A stretch of DNA of 64,000 nt from a virus, in the IMG/VR virus record IMGVR_UViG_3300033155_000498, positions 1 to 64,000 of that record; one strand, given 5' to 3'. Numbering within the stretch: position 1 is the stretch's first letter; every line of letters begins with the position of its first letter. Shown in pieces: positions 12,124 through 61,901 of the stretch. Both the position numbers and the translations under genes were made by a program. Below the pieces are notes generated by a model. That model ran no database searches, had not been told where the DNA came from, and saw only the letters and a list, made by a program, of their open reading frames with translations.

Positions 12124-12407
12124 TCTAATATCTCAAATCTAGTATCGTCTAGTACAATGGCGTCACCTTGCTCGATATACGGACTGCCAATTGTAAATTT
12201 ACCTGGCGCCGGGGCTAATTGTTCAAAATAGATCTGGTATACGCCGGGCTTGGCCTTAATCTGGAGCATTTCATTAATATAAAAACCATCATGGTATTTA
12301 AATGTGCGCTCTGTAAAAAGTTCGTCGTTAACATAAATGCGATACTCCGGGTAAAATCCCTGCCATTTGCATTTAACATCAAACTTGACTGTAACAAACT
12401 TTTCCAT
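12120..12407 (-). CDS. hypothetical late protein
   Basis: TAAATA-N5-ATG. Confidence 0.65.
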   Translation of the reverse strand: MEKFVTVKFDVKCKWQGFYPEYRIYVNDELFTERTFKYHDGFYINEMLQIKAKPGVYQIYFEQLAPAPGKFTIGSPYIEQGDAIVLDDTRFEILE

Positions 12408-12481
12408 AATAGTATTTATTCGGATTGGGATGATTTGAAATGAATTCTACGTTCGCATCTTGTTACTGCATATATAATTGT

Positions 12482-13369
12482 ATGGATACACTCTTCCACC
12501 TCGAATTAACCAATCTATGTACACTTAAATGCCCGGGTTGCCACAGAACGCAACTAAAGAATGAAGGCGTTAAGTGGGAAAATCATTCGGTTACACTTGA
12601 TGATTTGAAGCAGTTCATTGATGTTGATATATCAGGTAAGCAGATTAATATGTGTGGAACATATGGTGATGCTTTGTACCACCCAGACTTGATTAACATA
12701 GTTAAATGGATTAAAGAAAGCGGAGCATGTATACAGCTAACTACAAACGGCAGCCACAAGTCCTTGGCGTTCTGGGCAAGTTTAGCAGAACAGTTGGATA
12801 GCAATGACGAAGTAATATTCAGTATTGACGGCACGCCAGAGAACTTTACAGAGTACAGGATCAACGGCGATTGGAAAACTACGCTAAATGGTATAACAGC
12901 CATTGACGTTTCACCTGCTAAAATGAGTTGGAAATATATTGTATTCAACTACAACGAAAACGATATTGATGCAACAGAAGCGTTAGCATACAAACTAGGG
13001 TTTGATTCGTTTAGTACACACCTGTCTAATAGATACACAGATGACTTCAACCTAAAGTATATGCCATCCGAAAAGTTTATTAACAAGGAAGAACTTGAAG
13101 CTAGAGATAAAGTAATGTCTAATGTAGACACTGATTTTACACCTAGTTGTCGGGGAGAATCTCCAGCGTTTAACTATTATATTAGTGCTGAGGGATATTT
13201 TACGCCGTGTTGTTTATTAGCAGATAAAAGGTTTTATTATGATACGGAGTTCAGTAACGAAGATTATAATATTCGCAAGACAACATTTTCTAAGGTATTA
13301 AAAATGACTGAGGAATTCTATAAGTTCGATAATCCAACGGACGGGTGTAGGTTCTTCTGCGGTAGTTAG
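12482..13369 (+). CDS. radical SAM protein with SPASM/twitch-like C-terminus
   Basis: CTLKCPGC (CxxxCxxC), TTNG, FSIDG, C-terminal C/CC/CxxxC; likely start MDTLF. Confidence 0.85.
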   Translation: MDTLFHLELTNLCTLKCPGCHRTQLKNEGVKWENHSVTLDDLKQFIDVDISGKQINMCGTYGDALYHPDLINIVKWIKESGACIQLTTNGSHKSLAFWASLAEQLDSNDEVIFSIDGTPENFTEYRINGDWKTTLNGITAIDVSPAKMSWKYIVFNYNENDIDATEALAYKLGFDSFSTHLSNRYTDDFNLKYMPSEKFINKEELEARDKVMSNVDTDFTPSCRGESPAFNYYISAEGYFTPCCLLADKRFYYDTEFSNEDYNIRKTTFSKVLKMTEEFYKFDNPTDGCRFFCGS

Positions 13370-13605
13370 AGTTTTGCGTTAGCTAGTCTAGTATAATAGT
13401 CTGGCTTTTCAAGTAAGTGATCCAGCGCAATTTCTATTGCCATTGCATCATCATTAGTGTGTTCCAGTTCAACTTTAATCCCCATACGTAACTGAGCAAG
13501 AATTTCTTTAAGAGGCACTCCGTGCTTTCTAGCTAGTTCACTAGGTGAGTATGTTCTAACATCTGGGAACCGTTCGGCTTCTGATATAAACTCAATTGCT
13601 TTCAT
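13366..13605 (-). CDS. DUF5661-like protein with capsid-targeting-like N-terminus
   Basis: GIKVELEHT...EIALDHLLEKPDYYTRL; MKAIEFISE start. Confidence 0.7.
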   Translation of the reverse strand: MKAIEFISEAERFPDVRTYSPSELARKHGVPLKEILAQLRMGIKVELEHTNDDAMAIEIALDHLLEKPDYYTRLANAKL

Positions 13606-13613
13606 AGTACTAT

Positions 13614-14219
13614 TTAGCCGTATGTCCAATCGTTAACCAGTTTGTATTTAATGTTAAATGCGTTCATTAATAATTCCAATTCGCGCAAACATTCATGTCT
13701 ACCGCCGCCACCCATTAACGAACCACTTAATGCTTTAAGATCGCCAATGCTGATGTCAGGCAAGTATATGTTCATTTCCCTATTATCGTAGTACTCGAAG
13801 TCTTCGCCTACTAGCTTTAACCATGCTTCGTCTTCTATTTCTCTACTGTCGTTTAAATTATTTGTTACAAGGTAACGTATAACTCTGATAGTCATACTAT
13901 CGTCAACGCCTTCGTCCATCCATTGCCTTAACCATGCATACGACTTTTCTTTAAACGTAAATAGATGTGTTAAATCTTCGTCAAGTCCTTGTTCGATGTA
14001 ATGCCACATCACCTCGTTCTTTGTGTCTTCAATCCCAACGTCTTGCCCATTATAAAACACTGTAACATTCGGTTTCTTTTTGTTTATGTATTGTATAGCC
14101 TGTTGCATTGCTTCATTGTAGCCAAATCCGTCTGAATCTGCGCCTTGATGATCAGGACTATACGCAGGCTGGAAGTCTACTAGTATAAGACTGTTGCCGC
14201 GCGCCTCAACTAACTTCAT
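13614..14219 (-). CDS. isochorismatase/cysteine hydrolase-like protein
   Basis: LILVDFQ ... K ... GGGRHEC triad pattern. Confidence 0.6.
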   Translation of the reverse strand: MKLVEARGNSLILVDFQPAYSPDHQGADSDGFGYNEAMQQAIQYINKKKPNVTVFYNGQDVGIEDTKNEVMWHYIEQGLDEDLTHLFTFKEKSYAWLRQWMDEGVDDSMTIRVIRYLVTNNLNDSREIEDEAWLKLVGEDFEYYDNREMNIYLPDISIGDLKALSGSLMGGGGRHECLRELELLMNAFNIKYKLVNDWTYG

Positions 14220-15151
14220 TCGTCTGTGCTCGTTACTATTAATACTGGGACTTCGTTTACGCCAGCTTTAATAGCTGCCATTGAACGATGTACGCCTTCC
14301 TGCGACACTCGTGGACCACGTGAATAATCTAATGTAAGGATCGGAAACTGCTCTCCGTCTATCATCTTTTGTGTATATTTCTCAACTAACTCCGCATCAC
14401 GCTGTTTTGTAACTTGCTCAACAGTTTTACCAAACCCGTCTGCAACTCGATTTAAATATTCGCTTGGAGACATGTTAACTAACTCTGATACTAGGCCTTT
14501 TGCTCTTTCAAAGTATTCTGGATTTTGCATCATGTTATCGTAAAATGGCATTTCTGTTGTGTCTTTATGGAATGCATTTTGTATATCTTCGTTAGTTGGA
14601 TCGCCTTTGTCAACATCATCTTCAGCTGGTACTGGTGGCTTATTATGCCAAACTGATGTGTCGCTTATCCTACTCATGCTACCATAATCAATATAGCGAT
14701 TGTTACGCTTCACCCAAAGCAAGCCGCCTGCACGTAACGCTGGTTCGTACTTGTCTGACCCAAACTCCCCGGAAACTGTGCCGAGGTCTTTCGAACGTGG
14801 TTTACTTTTAAGTACTTCCCAAACGTGTTCTATTACAGATTCAACAGTTGGGAATAATGTTTTAATTGTTGAATATTTTCGTCCCAAGCGTCTAAGATCA
14901 CTATCGTTAACATAAAAATAACCAGGATCTTTATATCGAACGCCATCACCACGTGTCCAAACGCGCATGCCAGGATCTTTAACGTGTATTAGTGCAAGGT
15001 TAACTTTTTGATCTTTGAGTGCTAACATTGTTCTACGCTTGCCAGTCATTTTTTCTAAAACTGTGCGACTAATCTCTTTGTTTAGAGCGTCAGCAATAGC
15101 ATTAACTTTACTAAACATACTGGCTTCTGTTATAAAATCATTTGCCTTCAT
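14216..15151 (-). CDS. putative internal protein with C-terminal ParB/Srx-like domain
   Basis: MKANDFITE; QEGVHRSMAAIKAGVNEVPVLI. Confidence 0.6.
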   Translation of the reverse strand: MKANDFITEASMFSKVNAIADALNKEISRTVLEKMTGKRRTMLALKDQKVNLALIHVKDPGMRVWTRGDGVRYKDPGYFYVNDSDLRRLGRKYSTIKTLFPTVESVIEHVWEVLKSKPRSKDLGTVSGEFGSDKYEPALRAGGLLWVKRNNRYIDYGSMSRISDTSVWHNKPPVPAEDDVDKGDPTNEDIQNAFHKDTTEMPFYDNMMQNPEYFERAKGLVSELVNMSPSEYLNRVADGFGKTVEQVTKQRDAELVEKYTQKMIDGEQFPILTLDYSRGPRVSQEGVHRSMAAIKAGVNEVPVLIVTSTDE

Positions 15152-18100
15152 TGTGGGTAGTGTCCTATATTTTTCATTAAGTTTTTAAATACTTCTTCAG
15201 CGGCAGATGCCTCATTGCCGTGTATGTCACGCTCAACTTCCATTCCTTCCAACCAGCGCATGTTTGCATCCATATCTTCTACACTGTGCCTATCAGCAAT
15301 CATTTGTATTGCGTCACGATGTGACTTTGGTATAGCCGGAGTGCCGTCGTCAACTGCTGGAGCGGCTTGTTTAGCACGTCTACTCTTTAGCTGATTAATT
15401 AATTCTTCCTTGGTAATCATACCTGCGTTAAATGCTGCAAATAAAGTAAACGCTGGTTTGTCTGCTTCGCCCTGTCCTACATTGGATGCTAACTTATATA
15501 ACTTCTTAGCGTATTCTTTCTTGTACGCTGCTGGATCTGCTGCTACTGCATACGCAACAATAAAGCGGTTTATAGCTGCAAAGATAGCTTCAATATCGTG
15601 GAAGTAGTCTTCGCCGCCTGCGGATCTAAACTCGATCCAGCCATCCCTAACACCCACTGACGCAAATTTACCAAAGCTAATATTGTTAAAGGAATTACTA
15701 ACTGCATGACTCAGATCACCTTTCATTTTAGACATTAGCATTGCAAGTGATTTTTCCTTGCCTGGTTTATCTCTTTCGAAACCTTGTCGTGCATCCATCA
15801 TATCACTTAGTTGTGTGAGTGAGTGTACTGCATATTCGTTAAACTCGCGCCCAAAATGTTTTAATATATGTGCGTCACCTAGCATAATAACTAACTTCGC
15901 ATAATCCAATTTAGATTGATCCACTTTAGCAAGGCTTACGTTAATATGTAAACCTGTTGATTCGTTTGCATACGCGCCCTTGCCCTTTAGATATTCAATA
16001 ACTGCTTCAACATTCTCAATACCATCTACATAATTCATTTTTGATGTGACTATTTCCAAACCACTATCACCATCGTTATTCGGCTTAATGGACGCATCGC
16101 TTGTAACTGACCACGTTGTACTTGTATCAGTATCACCGTAACTGTCGCCGCCATCTACCGAAACACTTTCACCGGATATGTCTTCTAAGTCGCTTGCAAC
16201 TTGATGTGCAAGTTCTTCGTCAAAATCTTCTTGGTACAATGGACCACCGGGCCAAGTTAAATCACCGGACCATTCGTTATATACATCGCCCATGCTGTTT
16301 AAATGTACCTGGCGTAACCACGTACCAACAGAATAATCATAATCATTGACTGCTATTTCTGTCTCATAGAATTCTTGCTGATAAAATTCATTTAATGCTT
16401 CTATAGCTTCCACATTGTCAGCAACGAAAACTTCATAGTATAAAAGTAAGTACGGGTCGGTGGCTTCCTGCACAGGCCACTGTTCAGCATCGCCGTCTGT
16501 TTTATATGCATCGTGTGCCACACGTAACACTTCATTGGCAATCTCTTCTGTTATCTCAAGATCGTCTTCGTCTACTTTCTCACCTGCTTTATCAGCAAGA
16601 TCGTTTTTAATTCTAATAATAGCATCGTCTGCATCACTTGAGTTAACATACAGGTCTGTCATTATTTCTACTTTCTTAGTGTCTTCAACAGTTGGATTAT
16701 TAAGAGCATCGTCTACTTCACTTGTCTGCCAAGCTGATGCCCGTTCGTCTATCCATTCTTGATGCGCTGCCATCATAGTTTCAAACGCTTCGTCGTTGTC
16801 TGTGTCGTATGTAAAGAATTCGCGTATGTCGTCAAATGATGTGTGTTTAGTAATGTCCGGATTTGCTTCTGTGTCTCGCTGAATTATAACTTCAAACTCA
16901 AGTCCAATCATTGGATCAACTGATTGTATAATACTGTTTACATGCTTCTGCAATCCGCCCGGTGACATGTTAAGCTCGTTAACAAGCCCTTCGAATATAT
17001 TATTAACTGTTTTAGTTTTGCCGTTTGTTTTTAGTATTGGCGGTACACCACCTACTGTTACCGTGTGCCCTAATTTTGCTGCTTCTATTTTAGTTTGGTT
17101 AACTCCAACATCGCATGTTGTGTTAACACCTTGAACAATGCGGCCTTGTTCATTAATCTGTGTGCCTACAACTTTATGTACTAATCGTTTCGCTTCTTTA
17201 GTTCTGTCTGCTGCTATTAAACGTGTAAGTAAATCAATCTGTGCTTTTGGTGCTATTTTATAAAATTGACTGATTTCGTTAGGGCCGGTATCTGTAGCGA
17301 ACTTAGTAAGATTTGATGCTGCTTCGTAGATATAGTCATAATCAAAATCATCAAACAGGCTTTCTCTCGCTGCCATTAAACGTTTGACCATTCCTTCTGT
17401 TGCTTGTGTTGTTGTACCTGTTTCAAGCTCTGCACGTAGCTCTTGTGCTAATGTATCGGGTTCGTCTTTCTTTTGCTCAAGACTTAACTTACTGTCTTCG
17501 TGCCCGCGCCTCTTAGCCCAAAGTTTTGCAAAGTAACCATCTGTGCGTAGCATTTTAAATGCTAAGTTCTCAGGTCCAAACTCTCCAAACTCGTCTAGTC
17601 CAGCGGATCTGTACTTCTTAACTAGATCTAAAACACTGTTTAAATATTCTGAATCGTCGGAGGCCAATGCACGAATAGCAAGGTTCTTTAGTTTGTCGTA
17701 TTTTAATAAGGTTGCAGTATCGTTAAGGTTTGCACGTTGCTTAGATGGAATCTTATTCCACTCATCCTTCATAACACTGTAGCTACCTAAGGAATGATGT
17801 GGTTCTGCTGCATCTTGTACGTACAGCTCAACTTCATATCCTTTAATTTTAATATCGTGGTTGTGATTGTATTGATACTTCTTAGCATCAAACATTTCTT
17901 TATAAACTTCGTTATTTGGAAGTTTTGTAAAGTCTACTATAAGGTGTAAGTCAACATCTGAGTGTGGTGTATAACTATATGCTGCATTAGATCCACTTAC
18001 TTCGATATCAACTAATGCGATGTTCTGTACGCCTAAGAACTCGCGGAAATGATCCGCAATCTCTATTAGTTTATTACGTACCAGCGGGCGCATCTTGTCA

Positions 18101-18183
18101 TTCATAAAGATTTGTGGATTCAAATCAGTATTAAAGTTTATGGCCTTCGTTAGTTGGAAGTTGTCGAGTTCTTCTAAATTCAT
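15148..18183 (-). CDS. nucleotidyltransferase + putative amidoligase (COOH-NH2 ligase) multidomain protein
   Basis: N-terminal SGSNA...SDVDLH (pol-beta NTase); C-terminal GLEFE, DASI, GLEIVT, NESTGLHINVS, IEFRSAGG. Confidence 0.75.
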   Translation of the reverse strand: MNLEELDNFQLTKAINFNTDLNPQIFMNDKMRPLVRNKLIEIADHFREFLGVQNIALVDIEVSGSNAAYSYTPHSDVDLHLIVDFTKLPNNEVYKEMFDAKKYQYNHNHDIKIKGYEVELYVQDAAEPHHSLGSYSVMKDEWNKIPSKQRANLNDTATLLKYDKLKNLAIRALASDDSEYLNSVLDLVKKYRSAGLDEFGEFGPENLAFKMLRTDGYFAKLWAKRRGHEDSKLSLEQKKDEPDTLAQELRAELETGTTTQATEGMVKRLMAARESLFDDFDYDYIYEAASNLTKFATDTGPNEISQFYKIAPKAQIDLLTRLIAADRTKEAKRLVHKVVGTQINEQGRIVQGVNTTCDVGVNQTKIEAAKLGHTVTVGGVPPILKTNGKTKTVNNIFEGLVNELNMSPGGLQKHVNSIIQSVDPMIGLEFEVIIQRDTEANPDITKHTSFDDIREFFTYDTDNDEAFETMMAAHQEWIDERASAWQTSEVDDALNNPTVEDTKKVEIMTDLYVNSSDADDAIIRIKNDLADKAGEKVDEDDLEITEEIANEVLRVAHDAYKTDGDAEQWPVQEATDPYLLLYYEVFVADNVEAIEALNEFYQQEFYETEIAVNDYDYSVGTWLRQVHLNSMGDVYNEWSGDLTWPGGPLYQEDFDEELAHQVASDLEDISGESVSVDGGDSYGDTDTSTTWSVTSDASIKPNNDGDSGLEIVTSKMNYVDGIENVEAVIEYLKGKGAYANESTGLHINVSLAKVDQSKLDYAKLVIMLGDAHILKHFGREFNEYAVHSLTQLSDMMDARQGFERDKPGKEKSLAMLMSKMKGDLSHAVSNSFNNISFGKFASVGVRDGWIEFRSAGGEDYFHDIEAIFAAINRFIVAYAVAADPAAYKKEYAKKLYKLASNVGQGEADKPAFTLFAAFNAGMITKEELINQLKSRRAKQAAPAVDDGTPAIPKSHRDAIQMIADRHSVEDMDANMRWLEGMEVERDIHGNEASAAEEVFKNLMKNIGHYPQ

Positions 18184-18201
18184 ATCAGTATTTATGAAGA
18201 T

Positions 18202-18792
18202 CTACGAGCGTGTGATGTTTACGGACTTGTGTGACCATACGTGCCCGCCGATATCACGCCAGCGGTTGCAAAATTCCCAGGACTCATCCTGCTCTATATT
18301 TTTGCGTACTGTGGTTTCGAAATATGATCTTAGTAAGGAATCATCGCTAAATGCAGATACACGTGGGTGGTCTTTTAGGTGTTCAAATGCTTCGCGGCTT
18401 ATCATCATAAATCCGCCATCAACGTTATCAACTTCTCTAGTGTCAACTTCGTCTAGCATTTTAGTGGTACAGTATTGATTGACTGGACCAATTATATGTT
18501 TCTTAGCTGAAAGTAACGCTAATACTTGCCATGGTTCAAATCTAACATCTGCGTCAATGAATAACAAATGTGTTAGTTTAGGGAAGTTTAAGAACGTTGA
18601 TACTAGAGTATTTTTTAAGCCTGGAACGAGTACAGCGGCTTCAGCTGTATGTCCAATGCCAATTTGTGTTGCTGTTTCGCTCCACATAACATAACTTTGA
18701 AATGTGTGAGTGGATATACCGGGTTGGGAGAATATGCAGGTGTGTACGTGTTGTTCTTTAAGGTAGTCAATGGGTGCTAAATTTATGTTCAT
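18202..18792 (-). CDS. GT-A fold glycosyltransferase-like protein
   Basis: THLLFIDAD (DxD), GGFMMISREAF, FCNRWRDIGG. Confidence 0.6.
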   Translation of the reverse strand: MNINLAPIDYLKEQHVHTCIFSQPGISTHTFQSYVMWSETATQIGIGHTAEAAVLVPGLKNTLVSTFLNFPKLTHLLFIDADVRFEPWQVLALLSAKKHIIGPVNQYCTTKMLDEVDTREVDNVDGGFMMISREAFEHLKDHPRVSAFSDDSLLRSYFETTVRKNIEQDESWEFCNRWRDIGGHVWSHKSVNITRS

Positions 18793-18822
18793 AACTGTAT
18801 TTAATACAATTATGTACGTAGT

Positions 18823-19479
18823 TTAAAATTTCGTAATAAACTCTACAAATTCGCGTATTAGATCTTCTGTTTGTACTACGCCTAGTTTCTTATCAAACAA
18901 GTTGCGTAGTCCTTGTGGTACATCACCATAAAGGTCTGCAAGGATTTTGCCACGATTCTTATCTGTTGCTGTAGCATACATGTCGCGTATTTGAGTTGCG
19001 CCTTTTACCTTCTTGCCTGCTACTGGAAACTCGATAGTTGGTGTTACATACGCATACATATGGCCTGATGAAACTGGCTGCGCGTCTTTGCGTAACCACT
19101 GTATGGCTGCGCGTTCTCCGTTCTTTTTAACGGCGTACCCTTCTGCGTCTGTATTTGCGCCAACTAAACGATCACCATCTTTTTGGCTTACTGCAAGAAT
19201 TATAACAGTATCAGTATCACTAAATGGAATTGCATCTTTAATAAACTTTTCGACGTACGGACTCTTAACTTTAACGAACTTATTAGCTGGAATGCCCATT
19301 GCCGTTGCAATACGTTTCTTTTCGTTCCATGAAAATGGATCTCTTGGACCAGTTGCTTTTTCAGCTGATGCCATGAATACGCTATTAGCACCAAACTTTT
19401 GAGCTAGGTGATCGTAGGATGATTTATGGCCTTTGTGTGGCGGTTGGAATCGGCCGCCATATACAACTAATGTCTTCAT
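18823..19479 (-). CDS. HxGH cytidylyl/adenylyltransferase-like protein
   Basis: GGRFQPPHKGH; GATQIR. Confidence 0.75.
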   Translation of the reverse strand: MKTLVVYGGRFQPPHKGHKSSYDHLAQKFGANSVFMASAEKATGPRDPFSWNEKKRIATAMGIPANKFVKVKSPYVEKFIKDAIPFSDTDTVIILAVSQKDGDRLVGANTDAEGYAVKKNGERAAIQWLRKDAQPVSSGHMYAYVTPTIEFPVAGKKVKGATQIRDMYATATDKNRGKILADLYGDVPQGLRNLFDKKLGVVQTEDLIREFVEFITKF

Positions 19480-19487
19480 AGCTGTAT

Positions 19488-19823
19488 TTATTTCTTTTTA
19501 GGGAATGTTAAGATATTTGCATTTTGGTGTGCTTCTTCAAGTACCGTTTGCATAGCTAATGATTTTTGGAATTCTTCTACTTGTTTGTAGAATATTGTAA
19601 CCATTGCGTTATAACGTGCAACAGGGTCTTTATATTTGGATAGGTCTTGCTCTAAGCGCCACTGTACTCCCCTGAGTCTTTCTTCTTTCTTAGGATCGCC
19701 TTCGGAAATACGAATAATTTCTTTATCTAATAAGTCTTTGCGGTAGTCTTCAAATGCTTCAGGATCAATCTTGGCCATCTCTACTAGCTGTGCAAACTTA
19801 GTATCAAAATCGTCGCCAAACAT
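19488..19823 (-). CDS. DUF3135-like protein
   Basis: LVEMAKIDPEAFEDYR...RLRGVQWRLE. Confidence 0.6.
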   Translation of the reverse strand: MFGDDFDTKFAQLVEMAKIDPEAFEDYRKDLLDKEIIRISEGDPKKEERLRGVQWRLEQDLSKYKDPVARYNAMVTIFYKQVEEFQKSLAMQTVLEEAHQNANILTFPKKK

Positions 19824-20195
19824 TTAATACCCGACTGATACTTTGTTAATAGTTCCTGCTGTAAACTGAGTTACAGTGGCTCGAAGCCATGTGTAGTTGC
19901 CTTCAAGATTAGCGAAGTTATTTTCGGTTAAAGGATTAATACCATCGCCGATTGTTTGGATTGGAAAATAATTGGGTGTGGTGTTATCTGCATCTAGTGT
20001 AGCTTCAATAGTAATAATAGCTATTACGCCGGTTAAATACCAGGACAATGTTTGAACGCTCTTATCCTTAGAATAATATGCTGCGGCTTTTTGTGGTGGG
20101 CCACTAAAGTCTCCGCTATCAACAAGCGGATCATAGTTTCCGTTGGCTGTGGCAAACGTTGTTGATGGGATTAAATTGTACGATGATGTTTTCAT
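19824..20195 (-). CDS. hypothetical beta-rich structural protein
   Basis: IEATLD...GNYTWLRA; TAAATA-N5-ATG. Confidence 0.55.
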   Translation of the reverse strand: MKTSSYNLIPSTTFATANGNYDPLVDSGDFSGPPQKAAAYYSKDKSVQTLSWYLTGVIAIITIEATLDADNTTPNYFPIQTIGDGINPLTENNFANLEGNYTWLRATVTQFTAGTINKVSVGY

Positions 20196-20196
20196 A

Positions 20197-20646
20197 TCAG
20201 TATTTATCTGTTATTTCAAACAATGGTTCTTGATCTTCTAACCAGTCTTTTATCATTTGTAGCTCTGTACGTGTTTTGACTGGATTATTAGGAAAGACCA
20301 ACCCATCTATAGTTAGATCATATATGATACCGTCTCCGCTATCCTTACCACTGGATATCGGCACCAGCTGAAGATCAGTTTCTTCAATTAATTGAGATGC
20401 AATCTTACCCATTGGCGTTGGAAGCATTTCTACATGAGCTACAACATAGTCACCCTCTATAGAAAGGATCGCTTTAGCTGCAATGCGATCCATAGTAGAC
20501 GACTTAGGCACCGGGTATTCATCAAACGTAACAATACCAAGACCTTTGTTGAATTCTTCAACTGCTTTAACTAGTTCGTCTCTGGGGTAGATTCTACCTC
20601 TGCCATTGCCTGATACGACATCGCATTTGTAAATCTTTGCTTTCAT
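20197..20646 (-). CDS. prohead protease (T4 gp21)-like protein, degenerate
   Basis: NGRGRIYPRDELVKAV, LPTPMGKI; lacks the GELxHP and SSRG motifs. Confidence 0.55.
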   Translation of the reverse strand: MKAKIYKCDVVSGNGRGRIYPRDELVKAVEEFNKGLGIVTFDEYPVPKSSTMDRIAAKAILSIEGDYVVAHVEMLPTPMGKIASQLIEETDLQLVPISSGKDSGDGIIYDLTIDGLVFPNNPVKTRTELQMIKDWLEDQEPLFEITDKY

Positions 20647-22964: not shown

Positions 22965-22965
22965 A

Positions 22966-23340
22966 TTATACCTTTTTCTTTCGTTTGGCACGTTTGATGC
23001 CGTTATGCAGACGATCAATGGCTTTTCCTATCTCGCCATCCTCGTCTGAGATTGTAATCTGCTTCTCATTACCTAAATAATTTGTATAACTTATATGTAT
23101 TGTACTGTCTTCTTGATCTTTTTGCAAGTCTTTTATAGATGGATTGAAGAAAAAATGCGGTTTTATTTTGGTTACAAGTATTTTGGCATCAAGCCCAACG
23201 TCCGGACCAGTCAATGCTGACCTAGGAGTTAGGTTAAGTGCAATTAGCATCTCAATCCCTTGTTTTTGATTTGTAGTAGGAGCACTATATGTTACATCCT
23301 TGGCTGGTTTCTTCTGTGGTTTATCTTTTATTTTTAGCAT
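22966..23340 (-). CDS. peptide deformylase-like protein lacking catalytic motifs
   Basis: ALTGPDVG ~ GLAAPQVG, FFNPSI ~ INPEI, IDRLHNGI ~ HEIDHLNG; no EGCLS or HExxH. Confidence 0.5.
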   Translation of the reverse strand: MLKIKDKPQKKPAKDVTYSAPTTNQKQGIEMLIALNLTPRSALTGPDVGLDAKILVTKIKPHFFFNPSIKDLQKDQEDSTIHISYTNYLGNEKQITISDEDGEIGKAIDRLHNGIKRAKRKKKV

Positions 23341-23349
23341 ATAAAATAT

Positions 23350-24090
23350 TTAGTCCTTATCCTTCCGAATCAGTGCTAAAAGTGACTCGGAAATATCGTC
23401 TGGAATCTTCCCAACCAAGCGGACTAACAGGTCACCTTTTACTAAATGGTTTGATCTTGATTGTATTCCATTGCCCTTTACGCGCATATGAGTGCCAGGA
23501 TTTGTTCTCGGTGGGACCTTCAATCTTATTGTGCTGCCGTCTATTGTCCTAACATCTAATTCTGTTCCAGTAATTAAGTCCCAGATGCTTATGTCCTCAC
23601 CCTTAATTAAATCAAGATTTTGTACTTCCCATATAGTATCAGGTTGAATTCTAAATTTAATAACAACATCAATATTGTTTGCTAACTTTGGATATCTGAT
23701 TGCTTCGCCATTACGTATACCAGGCGGAATAGTTATTTCAACATTCTCATTTTTGCCATGTACTGGAATTTGCATTAGATGGTCGCCACCGAGAACTGCA
23801 TCTTTAAGTGATATTAGCATTGATAGACTAACTTGCATCTGATGGCGGAATCTTGCTTCTCGCAAGAAATCATTGATGTCGCCGGGTGTTTTAAAATTGA
23901 AACTTGCTGCTGTGAAGTCTGGTGGTCCGTCTTTAACTTGGTCGTATGCTGTTTGAAGTTCTTTAAACTTTTCGTCCCTGCCACCATTGCGGTCAGGATG
24001 AAGCTTCATAGCAAGACGTTTGTATGCTTTTTTAACTTCTTCTGTTGTGGCGTTTGATTCTAAACCAAGAACCTTATACGGATCACTCAT
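23350..24090 (-). CDS. dnaJ: DnaJ/CbpA-family co-chaperone
   Basis: J-domain with HPD; DnaJ C-terminal domain; no Zn finger. Confidence 0.88.
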   Translation of the reverse strand: MSDPYKVLGLESNATTEEVKKAYKRLAMKLHPDRNGGRDEKFKELQTAYDQVKDGPPDFTAASFNFKTPGDINDFLREARFRHQMQVSLSMLISLKDAVLGGDHLMQIPVHGKNENVEITIPPGIRNGEAIRYPKLANNIDVVIKFRIQPDTIWEVQNLDLIKGEDISIWDLITGTELDVRTIDGSTIRLKVPPRTNPGTHMRVKGNGIQSRSNHLVKGDLLVRLVGKIPDDISESLLALIRKDKD

Positions 24091-24135
24091 ACTAATATTT
24101 AAGCGGCCTTGCGACCGCTTGCATATTTTTAGTTC

Positions 24136-29422: not shown

Positions 29423-29980
29423 TTATTTTTTAACTGGTAAGTGTGCTAACGTACGAAACGCATTCATTTCATCATCAGTACTTCTGTAAATATTCTTATG
29501 TGGTAAGCCAGATGCTAAACGCATTTCATTTAATTCCATCTCGTGAGTTTCGCGATATGATTGCGGGCTTAGAATTAACTCTCTTGCTAGTACTTCTTCA
29601 TCAAATCCAAATTCATTACCATCGTATGTGACAGTCCAATCTGTTATTTCTAAATCAGTTAGTGTATTAAAATCTTCTAGCATCTCTTTCATTTGTGCAA
29701 TTAATTGAGTCCTACGTTGAATTTCAACAAATACCAAATACCTGTTTGGTTCAATCTCGCCAGGTGAACGATCAGCATCAATTACCCATGTGTAGCCGGT
29801 TTCAAACCACTTAACTAAGTCTTCTGCTACAACAATATTATGTACGTAAAAGCTCAATACAACATAAGCATCATCGTCACCAACTTTGCTTTTAAACTCG
29901 TCAACATATACAGTAGGCTTAATCATGTCTACCATATCTTTGTATTCTAGGCCTTCGTTAAGCGAATGGGTTTTCTTCAT
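29423..29980 (-). CDS. phage hypothetical protein
   Basis: ORF track; coupled in a late operon. Confidence 0.6.
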   Translation of the reverse strand: MKKTHSLNEGLEYKDMVDMIKPTVYVDEFKSKVGDDDAYVVLSFYVHNIVVAEDLVKWFETGYTWVIDADRSPGEIEPNRYLVFVEIQRRTQLIAQMKEMLEDFNTLTDLEITDWTVTYDGNEFGFDEEVLARELILSPQSYRETHEMELNEMRLASGLPHKNIYRSTDDEMNAFRTLAHLPVKK

Positions 29981-30551
29981 CTTCTAAGTCCTGTTGTTCT
30001 GCTGCTTCATCGGCAAACTCTTCTTCGTCGTTGTCAATATTAGCATCCTGATCGAGATCTTCCTCATAACCAAGATCCAAGTCTTCAAGATCAATTTCTT
30101 GTCCTTCAAGCTCAATACTACCACTACGTATATCTGCGATAAGATCCTTTGGCATTGTAATCTCAACTAACCAAATTGGCATATCGTCTAAGATAGGTTT
30201 CTTTGTACCGGACCTAAAGTCGTCTTTATCTTCAACTTTACGTGGTATTTTCATTGTGGTTTTCTTAAATTTAATCTTACAATCAAATGGAAGTAACCGT
30301 CTAGCACCCTTTGGGTCTGGCATTAAGTGCCCGGGCCACATAAATGTACACGCTACGGTATATCGAGTAACTTCTGGGCCTTCGACCAATTCACCTAGTA
30401 TCCAGTTTTTAAATGCATACAAGTCAATTTCGTCAAGCACACCTTCAAAGTCTAGTAAGGTAGTTAAGCTACCATCACTCATGTAAATGTCTTTGATAGT
30501 GTCGGCTATTGCCCAGTAATCGGTATCTTTTGAAAAGAGTTCATCATTCAT
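29958..30551 (-). CDS. phage hypothetical protein (acidic tail)
   Basis: TAAATA-N5-ATG; 197 aa. Confidence 0.6.
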   Translation of the reverse strand: MNDELFSKDTDYWAIADTIKDIYMSDGSLTTLLDFEGVLDEIDLYAFKNWILGELVEGPEVTRYTVACTFMWPGHLMPDPKGARRLLPFDCKIKFKKTTMKIPRKVEDKDDFRSGTKKPILDDMPIWLVEITMPKDLIADIRSGSIELEGQEIDLEDLDLGYEEDLDQDANIDNDEEEFADEAAEQQDLEDEENPFA

Positions 30552-30699
30552 AGTGTTATTTATGACTATCTAATAGGATGGGAGTAATTGACTAGTTGTA
30601 AATCAACCGTGTTATTTATCTTAAAATAATCCAGAATATGTACATATACTCGTGCCTGGTTGTTGAAGTAAATATTATTGCAAAGAGGAGATTTTCGAT

Positions 30700-39197: not shown

Positions 39198-39229
39198 ATT
39201 ATTTTAATCCTTAGTAACTGTATTTATTG

Positions 39230-42770: not shown

Positions 42771-42823
42771 ATACTGTTCCTCTGTAAGTTACAGTATATT
42801 TATCAACTTAGGAGGGTGTCTAA

Positions 42824-43417: not shown

Positions 43418-43439
43418 ATATTTATTTACTGCTGGCGGG

Positions 43440-44194: not shown

Positions 44195-45252
44195 TTAGTT
44201 TAGCCGTTCAAGATTGGCTAGGTTGGAAGATTCCATGCAGTGTTTAAAATCAGACTTTCCATCAATTACATCAATAATTGATTCAAGGTGCTCGCACATA
44301 TCATCAACTGATAATATTGCATCGCTTTCCCAAACATTGCCAACGAGTGTTAATGCACGTTCTACTTCAGCAGTTTGGATTTCATCTGTACGCTTGTTTG
44401 TCTGAGTATTCATTATATCCTCTCCAACCATTTTGCAGCGTTAATTATATTAGTTTGTTTAGGGTAGGTCAACCGATATTTGGTATCAATTTAACCGATT
44501 TTAATCATCCACGGTGAAGAACTTGTTGAATTTGATGCTCTTATTTCGGTTGGGACCGAAATAACGTTAGCGGAACCGTATTGTGCCGCGCACATCTGTT
44601 GAGCTGCAAAGCTAGACTCTGCATTAAATTGGACAGTATGTGGTACACGGGCGTTGCCGTTGCGTACATATACTTTGGCTTGAAAGGTTTTCATATACTT
44701 ATTTATCGTAAACCAACCGGTCTACTGTGTCCTTTGTGAGCGTTGCAAATGTGCGTCTGGCTTTGTAAAAATATGCAGGTTTGGTAAACATTTTGATATC
44801 TGTTGTACCATCCTTGATATACCCAACCATATTCTCACCTTCAATTAAGTAGATGTGATTTGGAACCTTAGCTTCGCAATTCCAGGTTTTGGTTGTTTCT
44901 TTTAGAAAGACAATGCTCATACAATACCTTGTACTTCATTAAAACCAAATCCAGCTACACCGTATTGTACACCAGCGCCGTCAACAATAACATCTCCAAC
45001 GCTAATGGAATGCATTTTTGCAATACGGTTAATGTTTTCTTCTGGTCCCATGTTTCCCACGTGGAAAACATTTTCAAGGTCCGTAGCTTCAATTTCTGCT
45101 ACTTTTTCATAGAAGCCTTTAGCTTTATCAAATTCTTCTATTTTGCAATCGTGATATGCTTTAAACTTTGGATGGGTATATGGATCTTCCATACCGTTAA
45201 TTACATCACGTTCTAATTTAGTAAGTCTAATTTGGTAAATGCTGTATTTCAT
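44195..45252 (-). other. run of four small early hypothetical genes (44195-44431, 44491-44694, 44699-44920, 44917-45252); the last is YodL-like
   Basis: ORF track; the last has YSIYQ...HSISVGDV. Confidence 0.55.
44444..44472 (-). promoter_or_regulatory. early sigma70-type promoter
   Basis: TTGACC-17bp-TATAAT. Confidence 0.7.
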
Positions 45253-45540: not shown

Positions 45541-45798
45541 CTATGCTTTATTTAATAACTTGTGTGTCATTAAGAATGCTGTCATTTGCGCTGGGGGTAT
45601 TACTACAAACTCGCTGGCGTTGTGTATCTGTGGACTTGTCCACAGATACGGATAGATAATATCTACTTTGATCCGAATAGAATTGTATCTGCCAGGTTTT
45701 GCCAGTGCTAACACTTTATGGAGTTTTTCGTTGCGATATACGTGATCACCAATACTAATCGGAACGCCCATAAAATCAACATAATTATTCATATGCAA
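45541..45798 (-). CDS. hypothetical protein
   Basis: ORF track; has its own promoter. Confidence 0.55.
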   Translation of the reverse strand: MHMNNYVDFMGVPISIGDHVYRNEKLHKVLALAKPGRYNSIRIKVDIIYPYLWTSPQIHNASEFVVIPPAQMTAFLMTHKLLNKA

Positions 45799-52657: not shown

Positions 52658-54776
52658 TATATCGATTCTCCGGCTGCGTCTTCATGCATACCTTCAATTT
52701 CGTTTCGTAAGCGTTCAATCTCTTTTGCTGCTTCGTTGCTCAGATTTTTTTCAATAATTTGAACGGTGAGCGGATCAGTATCGGCAGCGTCTTTTATGCA
52801 GTGCAAAAGATATTCGCGTGATTCCAATTGTGCCCGGAGGCGCTCAATTTCTTTTGCTGCTTCTTCGCAATAAGAAGGGTGCCAATGGTCGCCACAGATG
52901 TTGGTTTTACCGTCGGCAATATCCCTAAGAATTTCTGTAATGTCAGGATTGTATATTTTCTGTTTCATTTGCATCTTCCTGGGCCATCTCCGTTGTCAGC
53001 TGTATTAGATCTTCGTCTGTTACACCTTCAAACATAGTCGGTGAAAACTTTTTGTAGTACACAATAGCCGAACCAATTGTATGATTAAGAAGTTTGCTTG
53101 CTACACGTTGTTTGACATACTTCTTAATTTTATTAATCCGTTTTGTTTTTGCTGCCTTACGTGCTGCATGTAGTTTTGGCAGACGGAATATATAATAACA
53201 CGACATCCATCCTGCGCCAAATCCAAACAGTGCGCCAATTATAAGTGGTGTGTGATCCATTATATCGTATCCTTCTTGCCATTAATGATAACGAAACGGT
53301 GCGCGCCTTCTGCGCTCGATGAGTTATCGTAATAATAATTTACTGTGCCTGTGTTGGTTGCCACACCTTCAATTAACACGTCAGCACCAAGCACAATGTC
53401 TTCATGATAACGAGTATAAACATATTTGTACACGAACGTCATCTTGCCCCAGTACACTTTCTCGCCTATCTTCTCTTCAATGTCACGCATTGCATTAGCA
53501 ATCGTCCTGCGACGCTGTGGCATGAACTTATGTAATTCTTCTATACCATCTTCCCACTTACTATATGTTTTGCCTGGACCTGCCCTAACGGCTTTTACAG
53601 GTTGGAATGATGCCCGCGGTAGATTCAGTGCGCGTTGTATCCTAAGATACTTTGCTTGGTTTGTTTTGCCATCGGCATATACTCTAACAGTAGGATCAGT
53701 AATACCTTTAAGTGTATCCCATGTATCTTGCTGTTCTGCTACTAGGCTCATTTCACTTCCTCTGCGCTAACCAGGACACGTTCCTGCTCGCCCGGTTTAA
53801 GTGTATCGTTAAAATAGTCAATTACCATCTGAGCATATTCTCTAGCGGGTAAACCTTTTGGCGCGCCAGCTATGCAACCACAACTGGTATCAAACTCTTC
53901 TTCCCAGGTGTCTTTCCACGTTTTATCATTTTGTAAACGTTTGAAAGTTATGTATGCATCACAGAACTGTACTGTCATTTTAACTAGCATTTGATAACCT
54001 CTTAAATACTTTCTGGTAATTTAATCCTTCATCAAATCCTTCAAACCAAGCCTTGGATTCTGCTGCATCACGCTCCACGGTAGCTGGGTAACGAATTCGG
54101 TCTGTACAACGATATGGTCCACCCGGACGATAATTCTCGTTCCAGGTCTTACCAGTCATGTATCCGTCTTTGAAAGAGTTACGTTTGTCCATTATTCGTT
54201 CCAGTGAAAACCTTTAAAATATGAAACCTGGATTTCAGCAGTTGAGCTTCCAGGATAGTAACCAGACTGTACGTTAAAACCTTCGCGTACTAAAAAGCGT
54301 TCTGTGGTTTGACGTTCCTCTGGTGTTTTCAAACTAATGTAAACCATGCTACGTCTACCATATGTTTCATCTGAGACGTTGCTATGCTTCAATCCTTTAG
54401 CTGACCACAATGTGGTTTTGAAATGTGTGTCAAGTGCTGCAAACAATTTTTTCTTGGATTTCATTTAGCTGCTCCAGTAGTTTTCGGAAGCTGGTGAAGT
54501 GCTAAAATTTGCATTTACACTTTCTTCGAAATCTTCGCCTGTCATTGCATTTTTACGTGTAACTGTTTTTTCAATGTTAGCGTGGAAGTCACTGGACTCA
54601 GCAACTGCAAAGTCTGCTTTAACTAAGTTGTCACCCAACTTACCTTTATTGTCCTGGCGTGTCAATGCTGCTTTAGCTGCGCCTTCGCTTTTAAATGATT
54701 CTTTATAACAACCTACTGAACGAGCTGGTATGCTCAAAATCTGTGTAGTTGCTTTGTTGTATATTACATGTGACAT
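52657..54776 (-). other. seven small early hypothetical genes (52657-52974, 52943-53260, 53260-53751, 53748-53990, 53980-54192, 54192-54464, 54465-54776)
   Basis: Tightly coupled ORFs downstream of the early promoter at 54816-54843. Confidence 0.6.
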
Positions 54777-54944: not shown

Positions 54945-54987
54945 GCTTAACTAGTGTTTACGCGGGTCTTAGACATAAATATTATTA

Positions 54988-55770
54988 ATGAATAGAGAAA
55001 TAGCACAATACATCAGAGCCTCTATTAGAGACAACTCAATGAATATAAAGTACCAGCCACAGTTTTGTACTGAGGGTGACTATTTTAAGATTACTGGAGT
55101 CGAGGCGTTGCTTCGGCCTGACACATCTGTATGTCATATTGACAAACTAATCAGGGTTGCTGTTGATACCGACCAGATGATCGATTTAGGTTACTGGGTA
55201 ATGAGGCGGGCGTGTCATCAGCTTAGATCATGGGTAGATGAGAATCTAGTTACTAGCACATTTTCAATGTCGGTTAACGTATCAGCAGAACAACTGCAAG
55301 ATAAACATTTCTGCACCAGAGTACTAGAAGTAATTCAAGACACAGAAATTAAAGCGCACCAGCTCACACTTGAGCTTACTGAAACATCAATGATTAACGA
55401 TTTGAACATCGCAAAGATATACCAGCTATCAACTAACGGTGTTAATATATCAATTGATGACTTTGGTACTGGATATAGTTCATTGGGCCGACTAAAATTA
55501 CTGCCAATTCACGAAATTAAAATAGACAAGACATTTGTAGATGACGTCACAAAGACGGAGCAGGATATCGCTCTGATCACAGCGATGTATCAACTAACTA
55601 AGGCGTTAAATAAATTTACTATTGTTGAAGGTGTAGAGAATACATGTCAGTATAATATTCTACGTGATATTGGATTTACTTGTTTTCAGGGTTATTATTT
55701 TTGTAAAGCAGAAACTGCTGAAGAGATTGAAGAAACTATTACCCTAATAAATTCTTTACACTGCCAATAG
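54988..55770 (+). CDS. stand-alone EAL c-di-GMP phosphodiesterase
   Basis: YQP, EALLR, SVNVS, ELTE, DDFGTGYSS, KID, EGVE, QGY. Confidence 0.92.
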   Translation: MNREIAQYIRASIRDNSMNIKYQPQFCTEGDYFKITGVEALLRPDTSVCHIDKLIRVAVDTDQMIDLGYWVMRRACHQLRSWVDENLVTSTFSMSVNVSAEQLQDKHFCTRVLEVIQDTEIKAHQLTLELTETSMINDLNIAKIYQLSTNGVNISIDDFGTGYSSLGRLKLLPIHEIKIDKTFVDDVTKTEQDIALITAMYQLTKALNKFTIVEGVENTCQYNILRDIGFTCFQGYYFCKAETAEEIEETITLINSLHCQ

Positions 55771-57816: not shown

Positions 57817-57854
57817 AGTATCTCCGGGTTAGACTCAGTGTATTTACCACTGCA

Positions 57855-59379: not shown

Positions 59380-60589
59380 AATGTATAATTGTATACATGT
59401 CGTTCTCTTTATTAATTCTGCGCCATGGGTCAATAATAACACAACCAGGTAACATTTCAAAATATGTATTGTCGTCTTGCATGTTGCCTGTGTAGCCGTA
59501 AGTGATGTTCCTGTTGTGTGCCCAAAGAACAACTGCCTGCATGGGTTCTAGTTCGTCGCCTGTAAGCGGATCAGCATAGGATACGCTGTGACCCGTTCCT
59601 TCGATGTAATGTCCAATAAGTGTACTATAGCTGCCTATTGTGTAAGGAACATCAGGCTTGTATGCTTTGCCGTGTATTACAATCGGAAGCTGTTCTTTTT
59701 CTGCTACGTCAACAATAAACTTAGCAAGGTTCTCTGCTTGTACTTCACGTGCGCCCATAATGGTCTGGAACATGTCGTAACCAATTTCATATTCTTGCGC
59801 GAGCCAACGCAATGCAATATTATCACGTGGGTGACATGCTCCCGAGTCGCCCATGCCAGGTACCATGTACTGTGGACTTTGCAGACGCATAGTGCTTCGT
59901 GCTAATGCACTAGCTACAACGTCTGAATTCATGTTGCCAATCTTCATTGCAAAATCTTGTATCATATTAACAATGCCAATCTTTGCGCTTATGTACGTAT
60001 TGTAGAAAATCTTAATACCTTCAGCTTCTTCCCACGTGCCTATTTCTGCACGGGTTTTGTTTCGCATGTGCATTCTACTATAAATTTTAACTAACTCGTC
60101 TACACGAGGATCGTTGCCATCCTTGCTGCCAATTATTAGCATCTCAGGATTAACCATATCCCACTTAGTGGTGCCCATTGCAATTAAATATGGATTGTAA
60201 ATTAATGTGTGACTGTCTAGTAAGTCATCAAACTCCCTGCGGGTGGTGCCTGGCAATACTGTACTGATTAGTACAATGTTCTTTTCTACTGATGCACATC
60301 TGTTGATTTCTTTTAGCACATCTTTAACAATAGTGTAATCAAAATCTTTTGGCTCTAAATGGCATGACGGGATGCCGCCACCGTATTCTTCATCATGTGG
60401 CGTAGGTACTGCAATAAAAATCCATTCACTGTTATCACATACATCTTTAATACTGTCTTTTACATCTACTAGATCAGACTCCACTGGTGCGACATCATAT
60501 CCAACTGTTGGAAATGTCTCTGCAAATACTTCTGCACAATCCATGCCCAATTTGCCTAAGCCAATGAACCCTATTTTTTCTTCTCGCAT
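59357..60589 (-). CDS. UDP-glucose/GDP-mannose dehydrogenase family protein
   Basis: GLGKLG, AVPTP, STVLPGT, KIFYN, GACHPRD, AYKP. Confidence 0.9.
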   Translation of the reverse strand: MREEKIGFIGLGKLGMDCAEVFAETFPTVGYDVAPVESDLVDVKDSIKDVCDNSEWIFIAVPTPHDEEYGGGIPSCHLEPKDFDYTIVKDVLKEINRCASVEKNIVLISTVLPGTTRREFDDLLDSHTLIYNPYLIAMGTTKWDMVNPEMLIIGSKDGNDPRVDELVKIYSRMHMRNKTRAEIGTWEEAEGIKIFYNTYISAKIGIVNMIQDFAMKIGNMNSDVVASALARSTMRLQSPQYMVPGMGDSGACHPRDNIALRWLAQEYEIGYDMFQTIMGAREVQAENLAKFIVDVAEKEQLPIVIHGKAYKPDVPYTIGSYSTLIGHYIEGTGHSVSYADPLTGDELEPMQAVVLWAHNRNITYGYTGNMQDDNTYFEMLPGCVIIDPWRRINKENDMYTIIHYGDTRSD

Positions 60590-60611
60590 GTTCTCTCCAC
60601 TAAGTAGTATT

Positions 60612-61901
60612 ATGTTTTCAGTCGACAACTTTTACAACTATTTAAACCAGTATCTCCAGACCAATAAAAAAGATGCAAATATGAAATCGTTTAACGTACA
60701 CGGTTCTCGGTTACTTAAAGATATTATTATACCTTCTTTTAACATTGGTGAATCCAAACCATTCCGGTTTAACGGACAAGTCGCAATGTTTGATCAGGAA
60801 CCAATTGAGCTTTCATATTATGAAGATTGGATTAATTTCGATCCTGAATCTTTTCCCGAGCATTATGAATATAATCAAACTGGCGACTTATACAAAAATC
60901 TTACACCCCAGGAGTTTATCTTTAGACACTTTTCTGGTGTGTATAATCCTATACTTTGCCATTCAGAACGCAATAGCCCAGAAGTAGAATTGTTTAAAGC
61001 TAATCATTTTCATCCTGTACATTATTTCTATCACGGGTTAATTGCACGTGATTGGTTTAGGCATTGGAAACATTATAACATGAAACCAGGTACAGAGTCA
61101 AAACGTCTGGGCATGTATTGCCGTGATGCTACTGGTAGTAGGACATACCGTTTAGATTTACTTAACAAGTTAATTCCGTTAAAAGATGAGTTATATTATA
61201 ATCTGCAGGATCCAATCTTTCAACTTGATCCACAGCTTAACATACATTATCAAAGTGGTGATACTCAATACGATAGTCATGCAAGTGCAACTATTGTACC
61301 TGAGGATTGTCAAGAATTTGATATACAAATTGTGCCCGAAACATTGTTTGATACACAAAAAACACATTTAACCGAAAAGGTATTTAAACCTATTGTAATG
61401 GAACAGCCGTTTATAATCGTTGGTTGTCCGAACAGTCTTGAGTACTTACAGAGTTATGGTTTCCAAACGTTTGGAAGTATTTGGGATGAATCGTATGATA
61501 AAGAAACTGATCCTGCAATCCGCATGGACAAAATAATAAACGTTGTGAAGTCTATAACTTCGCTTAACGAGCGGGAATATAAAAATGCAATGGGCAAAGC
61601 CCGTAGCATCGCAAAGTATAATCGCCAGCGTTTTTTCTCTGGTGTCTTTGAAGATATACTACTTAATGAATTGCACACTAACCTAGATGCTGCAATTGAA
61701 AATCGCAATAAAGAATATGAATCTATGCCTGGTGGCACATGGTTTATGTATTTAGATAAACTAGTTGAAAGTGGTTATACCATTCCAGAATATATCTCAG
61801 AACGCAATCATGAAATTATAAAATATCTATTAACTAACGACCCAATAATGGGCCGCAAGTTAATGATAAAATATAAACACTTATTAAATAGGTGTAATTA
61901 G
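60612..61901 (+). CDS. glycosyltransferase (GT10-like) protein
   Basis: IVPET...LTEKVFKPI...PF...YGFQTF...DESYD; start 60612 after TAAGTA-N5. Confidence 0.6.
   Translation: MFSVDNFYNYLNQYLQTNKKDANMKSFNVHGSRLLKDIIIPSFNIGESKPFRFNGQVAMFDQEPIELSYYEDWINFDPESFPEHYEYNQTGDLYKNLTPQEFIFRHFSGVYNPILCHSERNSPEVELFKANHFHPVHYFYHGLIARDWFRHWKHYNMKPGTESKRLGMYCRDATGSRTYRLDLLNKLIPLKDELYYNLQDPIFQLDPQLNIHYQSGDTQYDSHASATIVPEDCQEFDIQIVPETLFDTQKTHLTEKVFKPIVMEQPFIIVGCPNSLEYLQSYGFQTFGSIWDESYDKETDPAIRMDKIINVVKSITSLNEREYKNAMGKARSIAKYNRQRFFSGVFEDILLNELHTNLDAAIENRNKEYESMPGGTWFMYLDKLVESGYTIPEYISERNHEIIKYLLTNDPIMGRKLMIKYKHLLNRCN

Follow-up and report, generated by a model that had tools for sequence, protein, structure and literature searches.

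We have analysed the first 64 kb (the window) of the 78,393-bp IMG/VR contig IMGVR_UViG_3300033155_000498, in which a TAA(A/G)TA hexamer, called the box here, repeatedly stands exactly five nucleotides (nt) before an ATG start codon (TAA(A/G)TA-N5-ATG). We consider it likely, judging from the sequence pattern, that these boxes are gp55-type late promoters abutting start codons and that the genes behind them are expressed from leaderless late mRNAs. The completeness of the contig was estimated by CheckV at 22%, implying a genome of about 350 kb, and its G+C content is about 39%. Most genes are carried by the minus strand, and the gene content includes a T4-type family-B DNA polymerase, a clamp loader, a ClpA-like ATPase, and baseplate-wedge-like proteins.

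The family-B DNA polymerase is only 40-47% identical to those of the nearest named phages, namely Sinorhizobium phage Phosso, Vibrio phage 2.275.O, the 121Q/GAP32/CBB group, and Atu_ph07. PA5oct is similarly remote (about 38% identity via the ClpA-like protein), and a megablast search of the contig DNA against cultured phages gave no match. A much closer relative is IMGVR_UViG_3300032254_000001 (G001), a complete genome of 344,483 bp with terminal repeats, which shares 74 reciprocal best hits with the contig at a median amino acid (aa) identity of 66%. The phage is an uncultured giant member of the T4 superfamily, the T4-related phages. A genome-contig search for the host using a TctA-like gene gave no match, and a search for sequencing runs containing this DNA listed none. 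The candidate sliding clamp gene 3909-4631(-) matched no named PHROG and no PDB sequence, and the profile of the sheath family PF04984 had no match in G001.

Boxed start codons and their spacing

We counted 16 copies of TAA(A/G)TA-N5-ATG in the window (shuffles: 2.84 ± 1.8) and 18 over the 78-kb contig (shuffles: 3.6 ± 1.8). The observed count was reached by none of the 100-200 dinucleotide shuffles, and a scan of spacings from 0 to 25 over the contig showed enrichment nowhere except at N5. The spacing histogram of G001 likewise has a single N5 peak (48 against 14.9 ± 3.5 in shuffles), which is the outcome that the initial annotation had anticipated for such a comparison. In 61 non-redundant loci of further relatives (367 kb), 62 N5 matches were found against 3 in a reversed-sequence control, and 28 of the 62 are other open reading frame (ORF) starts. 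At positions -11 to -6 of called genes, TAAATA is the top hexamer (36 cases), followed by Shine-Dalgarno (SD) hexamers with at most 10 cases each.

These numbers bear on the idea that the layout is an artefact that arises by chance or from base composition, through AT-rich gene junctions and TAA stop codons. On the one hand, A+T make up 60% of the genome, and TAA, being a stop codon, ends the upstream gene in a few cases. On the other hand, the excess is confined to N5 and was unreached in the shuffles, and the upstream gene ends on the TAA of the box at only 5 of 42 boxed starts, this TAA being out of frame with the ATG. The stop codons upstream of boxed starts are scattered from -4 to beyond -400, and with so few shared TAA codons we rejected the stop-codon artefact. 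Moreover, the layout is conserved over orthologues at 55-84% identity (see below), and it is absent from T4, CBB, 121Q, PA5oct, and 2.275.O, although the motif is the T4 late core and is predicted for CBB. We therefore give an artefact practically no credence.

Among the credible gene starts of the window, 13 are at N5 and two at N6. All coordinates that the initial annotation had listed hold, both for the N5 starts (12407, 13605, 18183, 18792, 19479, 20195, 24090, 30551, 35174, and 43417 with TAAATA; 38025 and 60612 with TAAGTA) and for the N6 starts (23340 and 54988(+)), and a further N5 start that had been missed lies at 44694. In 12 boxed N5 cases, the ORF (67 aa or longer) has no start codon ahead of the boxed ATG, and at 13605 a single TTG lies 24 nt upstream of the boxed ATG. 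N5 matches at 12289, 29498, and 34668 were dismissed as not credible gene starts. Boxed genes make up about 12% of the genes in the contig and 6% in G001 (30 of 507 called genes), which does not support the large class of leaderless late mRNAs that had been proposed. The N5-abutting boxes represent approximately one third of the TAAATA boxes near gene starts.

The leftmost TAAATA-N5-ATG of these genes, at 12405-12418(-), opens gene 12120-12407 (95 aa), which heads a leftward run and whose G001 orthologue keeps both box and spacing. The divergent gene 12440(+) is only 32 bp away. A TATATA-N5-ATG variant had been reported before 12482(+); the variant is present, but its ATG lies in frame, 42 nt inside the ORF opening at ATG 12440. 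At 13603-13616(-), the same motif precedes gene 13366-13605 (79 aa, DUF5661), and the box is lost in the G001 orthologue. The product of this gene matches DUF5661 with E=3e-18, and an IF2 N-terminal domain is just sub-threshold (24.3 bits against a cut-off of 25.3). Three genes follow in close succession: 15148-18183 (box and start at 18181-18194(-); 1011 aa, phrog_36119 and amidoligase-like), which is conserved in G001; 18202-18792 (18790-18803(-); 196 aa), for which the G001 box is instead 11 nt upstream; and 18823-19479 (19477-19490(-); 218 aa, cytidylyltransferase-like), whose G001 orthologue has no box. At 19479 the TAA of the box is also the stop codon of the upstream gene, and at 20195 the TGA stop of the upstream gene lies inside the 5-nt spacer. 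The latter start (TAAATA-N5-ATG, 20193-20206(-)) belongs to gene 19824-20195 (123 aa) and is conserved in G001.

Gene 22966-23340 (124 aa) begins at TAAATA-N6-ATG (23338-23352(-)), and its G001 orthologue has N5. The DnaJ gene 23350-24090 (246 aa) begins at TAAATA-N5-ATG (24088-24101(-)). A 7-bp G+C-rich hairpin at 24100-24121 abuts the DnaJ box and scores as a plus-strand terminator; it may end antisense or upstream transcripts just ahead of the late start. TAAATA-N5-ATG also opens gene 29958-30551 (30549-30562(-); 197 aa), which encodes the virion structural protein phrog_12928 and starts in a divergent intergenic region, and gene 34842-35174 (35172-35185(-); 110 aa), whose G001 counterpart is N5-boxed but encodes a longer protein. 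In gene 37783-38025 (38023-38036(-); 80 aa), the box is the TAAGTA variant, and both variant and N5 spacing are conserved in G001. The ORF 43142-43417 (TAAATA-N5-ATG, 43415-43428(-); 91 aa) is ambiguous, with a second overlapping TAAATA at N1. Gene 44491-44694 (TAAATA-N5-ATG, 44692-44705(-); 67 aa) is conserved in G001.

On the plus strand, TAAATA-N6-ATG at 54976-54990 opens gene 54988-55770 (260 aa, phrog_11823), the first gene past a strand switch, and G001 has N5 there. TAAGTA-N5-ATG at 60601-60614(+) opens gene 60612-61901 (429 aa), in an ORF that is open from 60372. In G001, the orthologue has a TAAGTA-N5-ATG of its own as its start, and its alignment with the long ORF sets in at residue 81 of the latter. 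Considering that the N-terminus of this orthologue matches there, the true start is at 60612, not 60372. The boxed starts 12407, 30551, 54988, and 60612 lie at strand switches, where a promoter is required and there is little other room.

Conservation of the boxed layout

Among the boxed starts with a G001 orthologue, 12 of 16 are also boxed there (N5 or N6), although the flanking DNA cannot be aligned and the proteins have the median identity given above. The gene for the virion protein (29958-30551) has 204 IMG/VR relatives. In 58 distinct upstream regions of its orthologues (55-84% aa identity), [A/C]TAAATA-N5-ATG was found in 41 and N7 in 11, while in the other 6 the spacing is N4, N6, or N8 or the box is more distant. 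In the orthologues of Serratia phage BF, Salmonella phage Munch, and PA5oct, TAAATA lies 25-53 nt upstream and is followed by an SD, and the PA5oct orthologue is annotated as detected by electrospray ionization tandem mass spectrometry (ESI-MS/MS) in virions. Considering that these cultured orthologues carry the box together with an SD leader, the same promoter would serve the same gene, with the leader removed in the clade of the present phage. The conservation in G001 and among the 58 upstream regions suggests that the boxed layout is under purifying selection.

Promoter motif, sigma factors, and leadered boxes

A position matrix of 42 boxed starts, in which the TAA(A/G)TA positions are fixed by the search pattern, gave the consensus [A/C]TAAATA, with A at -12 in 25 starts and C in 11. 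It contains no conserved -35 region and no information upstream of -13; T at -13 was present in only 3 of the 42 and is not kept, as in other T4-like phages. The T4 late promoter is TATAAATA at -13 to -6, with a CTAAATA variant in Aeh1 (PMC1524935), and ATAAATA or CTAAATA has been predicted before structural genes in CBB and GAP32 (PMC5259590). In G001, 106 of 282 boxes lie in intergenic DNA, which represents 7.7% of the genome, indicating an approximately five-fold enrichment.

The late sigma factor that the initial annotation had proposed to locate was found in G001, where two gp55-family genes are present, and none was found in the contig itself, a miss that tells nothing in a 22% fragment. 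The first (284984-285997(-)) encodes 337 aa with an N-terminal extension and matches phrog_12791 (E=5e-76) and T4 gp55 (PDB 7d7c, E=8e-5). The second (256009-256404(-)) encodes 131 aa and matches phrog_234 (E=1e-16) and Pfam Sigma70_r2 (Sigma70 region 2). These two late-type sigma factors might serve two promoter classes. The consensus without a -35 region, the match to the T4 core, and the gp55-family sigma factor in G001 support reading the box as a putative T4-type, -10-only late promoter, as had been suggested at the outset.

The genes behind boxes, whether abutting or leadered, include those for the virion protein phrog_12928, the terminase large subunit, baseplate-wedge-like genes, and the capsid operon, and many boxed genes have no assigned function. 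The boxed genes of the contig comprise DnaJ, the virion protein, enzymes, and small unknown proteins, and those of G001 include the terminase large subunit, the virion protein, and three homing endonucleases. The homing or HNH endonuclease genes of G001 at 53070-53792(-), 61310-61999(-), and 183309-184085(-) each begin at TAAATA-N5-ATG. They recall I-TevI, a T4 homing endonuclease made only from late-promoter transcripts (PMC3014915).

A second architecture coexists with the abutting one, as had been noted initially: the leadered TAAATA boxes with GGAG or GAGG at 9237, 30669, 36072, 42797, and 57841 are all present. The box at 9237-9242(-) stands 18 nt before ATG 9218, with GGAG in the leader, and the box at 30669-30674(+) stands before gene 30700-31428(+), with GAGGAG in the leader. 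The box at 36072-36077(-) has an SD-containing leader and lies 26 nt ahead of ATG 36045; both box and leader are conserved in G001. The box at 39221-39226(-), before ATG 39197, is accompanied by a second box at 39241-39246, both conserved in G001. Those at 42797-42802(-), 26 nt before ATG 42770 (a baseplate-wedge-like N-terminus) with an SD, and at 57841-57846(-), 24 nt before ATG 57816 with GGAG, are conserved as well. Accordingly, all four leadered boxes with a matched G001 orthologue (36077, 39226, 42802, and 57846) are conserved. TAAATA also lies 10-60 nt before SD-led genes more generally, including the capsid operon of G001. In the major capsid gene of G001, 264347-265537(-) (Pfam Gp23, E=1e-96), TAAATA is followed at once by GGAG, ten bases before the ATG. 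A transcript starting six bases past this box would therefore lose the SD, and the gene is probably expressed from a leadered box three genes upstream.

The leadered boxes are also relevant to another idea, in which UAAAUA-N5-AUG at the abutting sites is no promoter but a site in the mRNA where a RegA-like repressor or ribosomal protein S1 binds, so that it works as an operator or enhancer of translation. The motif does overlap the translation initiation region, and T4 RegA binds AU-rich sites over the start codons of about 30 mRNAs (PMC3014915). However, the same heptamer also stands 10-60 nt ahead of genes with an SD and is over-represented between genes, it matches the late promoters of the T4 family, and gp55 homologues are present. 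The invariant hexamer is also unlike the loose AU-rich sites of S1 or RegA, and no Pfam RegA match was obtained in the contig or in G001 in a search made without a positive control. We consider an RNA operator very improbable at these sites and retain the promoter reading.

A further group of genes in the window, 8454-8717(-), 3909-4631(-), 44917-45252(-), and 45541-45792(-), has TATAAT-type elements and an SD upstream. One example is the repeated sequence ctataattagtacataa, found ahead of both 45252 and 45792. These genes look like a separate promoter class read by the host sigma factor (early or middle).

Proposed leaderless late expression and its precedents

RNA polymerase favours a pyrimidine at -1 and a purine at +1. 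Considering that the T4 box occupies -13 to -6, the five spacer bases would place +1 at the A of the ATG. Of 42 boxed starts, 35 have T at -1, a base that about 24% of other genes have there, and in the wider relatives the base is a pyrimidine in 25 of 28 starts; the T at -1 thus fits a pyrimidine(-1)/purine(+1) transcription start. When a box-N5 precedes an ORF start, the codon is ATG in 38 cases, against GTG or TTG in 3. The boxed starts have no SD because the five spacer bases leave no room for one, and a lenient SD scan (-17 to -4) in G001 found none at 26 of 30 boxed genes, whereas about half of the other genes have one. The minimum free energy of positions +1 to +36 was -1.43 kcal/mol for boxed genes against -2.49 kcal/mol for other genes (p=0.001), and the boxed 5' ends are also richer in A. 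Leaderless translation is known to depend on how accessible the start codon is (PMC8459731).

Initiation by 70S ribosomes on a 5'-terminal AUG has been reviewed, as has the boosting of leaderless translation by extra initiator tRNA (PMC9031893). G001 has an array of about 39 tRNA genes at approximately 33.4-49.2 kb (L019:13469 to L020:9145), three of them with CAT anticodons; coordinates of single genes are L020:3529-3614(-) and L022:13267-13340(-). One CAT tRNA resembles an initiator in its 1:72 mismatch and in three G-C pairs at the base of its anticodon stem, yet it has a long extra arm. A separate tRNA with a CTA anticodon would read UAG.

In the mechanism that we propose, host RNA polymerase with the phage gp55-family sigma factor would read [A/C]TAAATA as a -10-only late promoter. 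At 13-15 genes of the window, where the last A of the box is five (sometimes six) bases before the ATG, the transcript would begin at the A of the AUG. Such a late mRNA would have neither a 5' leader nor an SD, and 70S ribosomes would initiate on its 5'-terminal AUG. Inside read-through transcripts, the same ORFs would lack an SD and be translated poorly, and their synthesis would be confined to the late, promoter-proximal transcript. The classes of boxed genes may fit a need for late and probably modest expression, and the abundant major capsid protein of G001 is SD-led.

The initial annotation had gone further, to a suppression of SD-led translation or the use of special ribosomes. We found no support for this; an SD precedes about half of the genes of the phage itself, and the genes with an SD include the leadered late genes and the major capsid gene of G001. 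The initiation factor families IF1 (PF01176) and IF3_C (PF00707) had no match in the contig or in the complete G001, in searches whose positive controls matched, and the idea of phage-supplied initiation factors was dropped on this ground. In Sinorhizobium phage Phosso (PV764938; 469 kb), an IF-1 gene and a peptide deformylase are annotated at 116147-116365 and 124937-125455, the deformylase just ahead of the ClpA-like gene.

It could be argued that the late promoter is real, and that the boxed genes are nevertheless translated mainly from read-through polycistronic mRNA, by termination-reinitiation or 70S scanning, so that the adjacency of box and ATG merely reflects genome compaction. The genome is indeed 92-96% coding, and 13 of 42 boxed starts have upstream a same-strand stop codon that begins no more than 14 nt from the ATG; five of these stops are the TAA of the box, and five begin at -7, beside its last A. 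However, compaction alone predicts neither a single exact spacing nor the T at -1 nor the almost exclusive use of ATG. Many boxed starts have an upstream spacer of 15-400 nt or no same-strand gene within 400 nt, four are at strand switches, and the leadered boxes show that the phage tolerates leaders. Accordingly, we consider translation from read-through mRNA unlikely as the main route.

Several observations count against our proposal of leaderless late mRNAs. The sigma factor is known from G001 only, no gp55 gene having been found in the contig, which represents 22% of the genome. The box is not conserved in G001 at 4 of the 16 starts, and the start at 43417 is doubtful, because of its two boxes only that at N1 is kept in the G001 orthologue. 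The spacing also varies: N6 occurs in the window and N7 in 11 of the 58 virion-gene orthologues, which would give leaders of 1-2 nt or a shifted start. Finally, many boxed genes lie directly behind a same-strand gene, and translational coupling on read-through mRNA could occur there.

The nearest published precedent is Thermus phage phiYS40, a large phage that reportedly uses the host sigma factor on extended -10 promoters. According to Sevostyanova et al. (2007), as summarised in PMC3594737, most of its middle and late mRNAs are leaderless, with the promoter directly before the ORF. Leaderless genes are common in the phylum of its host (PMC12340547). Infection by phiYS40 raises IF2 and lowers IF3, whereas no tie to initiation factors was found here, and in the present phage the promoter is of the gp55 type and a minority of genes is concerned.

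T4 late transcription is a textbook case, and T4 late genes carry SD leaders. The late promoters of T4, which depend on gp55, gp33, and the gp45 clamp, are similar to the boxes in their TAAATA core, in the lack of a -35 region, and in the gp55-family sigma factor, which the clade also has. T4-like variants such as CTAAATA of Aeh1 correspond to the A or C at -12. As in T4, the box here would drive structural and homing-endonuclease genes, with +1 six bases past its last A. In contrast, T4 has no N5 excess (10 against 5 in the control), while in the present phage roughly one in three boxes close to a gene start abuts the ATG and T at -13 is not conserved. In T4 gene e (lysozyme) and I-TevI, the SD is hidden in a hairpin that is lacking from the late transcript, and read-through early copies remain untranslated (PMC3014915). 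Their late promoter, like the box of the present phage, directly precedes the start of translation. The present phage differs in that the SD is missing altogether, and the gate would be the position of the AUG at the 5' terminus, a leader-free counterpart of this late-only translation.

CBB and GAP32 belong to the wider group of approximately 350-kb T4-related phages, with a DNA polymerase about 40% identical and the same motif before structural genes, but PMC5259590 makes no leaderless claim and CBB has 4 N5 matches against 10 in the control. BF, Munch, and PA5oct differ by the 25-53 nt SD leaders at the virion gene. No N5 excess was found in T4, CBB, 121Q, PA5oct, Vibrio phage 2.275.O, or Phosso, and none of them is usable as a model for the layout. 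In Escherichia phage 121Q (NC_025447), the region 121927-131286(-) contains TAAATATAGTATAATG (N7) seven times and one single-base variant, at intervals of about 1.2 kb, and looks like a tandem paralogue array with its own late box per copy.

Outside the giant-phage clade, the cultured Pelagibacter (SAR11) phage HTVC008M (Kyanoviridae), a 147-kb T4-like phage, has 14 TAAATA-N5-ATG against 4 in the control, and in its first 50 kb all nine matches are on annotated starts. Its boxed genes include those for the tail tape measure, DNA end protector, head closure, tail tube cap, and baseplate wedge. For this phage we found neither a published map of its transcripts nor any claim of leaderless mRNAs. 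Our literature search on leaderless late mRNAs in T4-related or jumbo phages likewise returned no such paper, only unrelated uses of the word. Accordingly, we consider that a known promoter type and a known translation mode are combined here in a way not yet described. More tentatively, and as a proposition that we hold to be close to evenly balanced but somewhat short of it, the layout could be a widespread and so far undescribed mode in the T4 superfamily, used by a giant-phage clade that counts more than 200 metagenomic relatives and, independently, by SAR11 phage HTVC008M. In this mode, promoter and start codon would be fused, a set of late mRNAs would be leaderless, and the ORFs would be silent on read-through early transcripts, maybe with the help of a phage initiator-like tRNA.

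If the proposal of leaderless late mRNAs is correct, leaderless translation would belong to the normal late programme of T4-related phages whose hosts otherwise rely on the SD, and it would provide a simple mechanism for late-only translation. The layout predicts exact 5' ends of transcripts. It would also give a precise annotation rule for the choice of start codons, as in the correction of 60372 to 60612 in this study.

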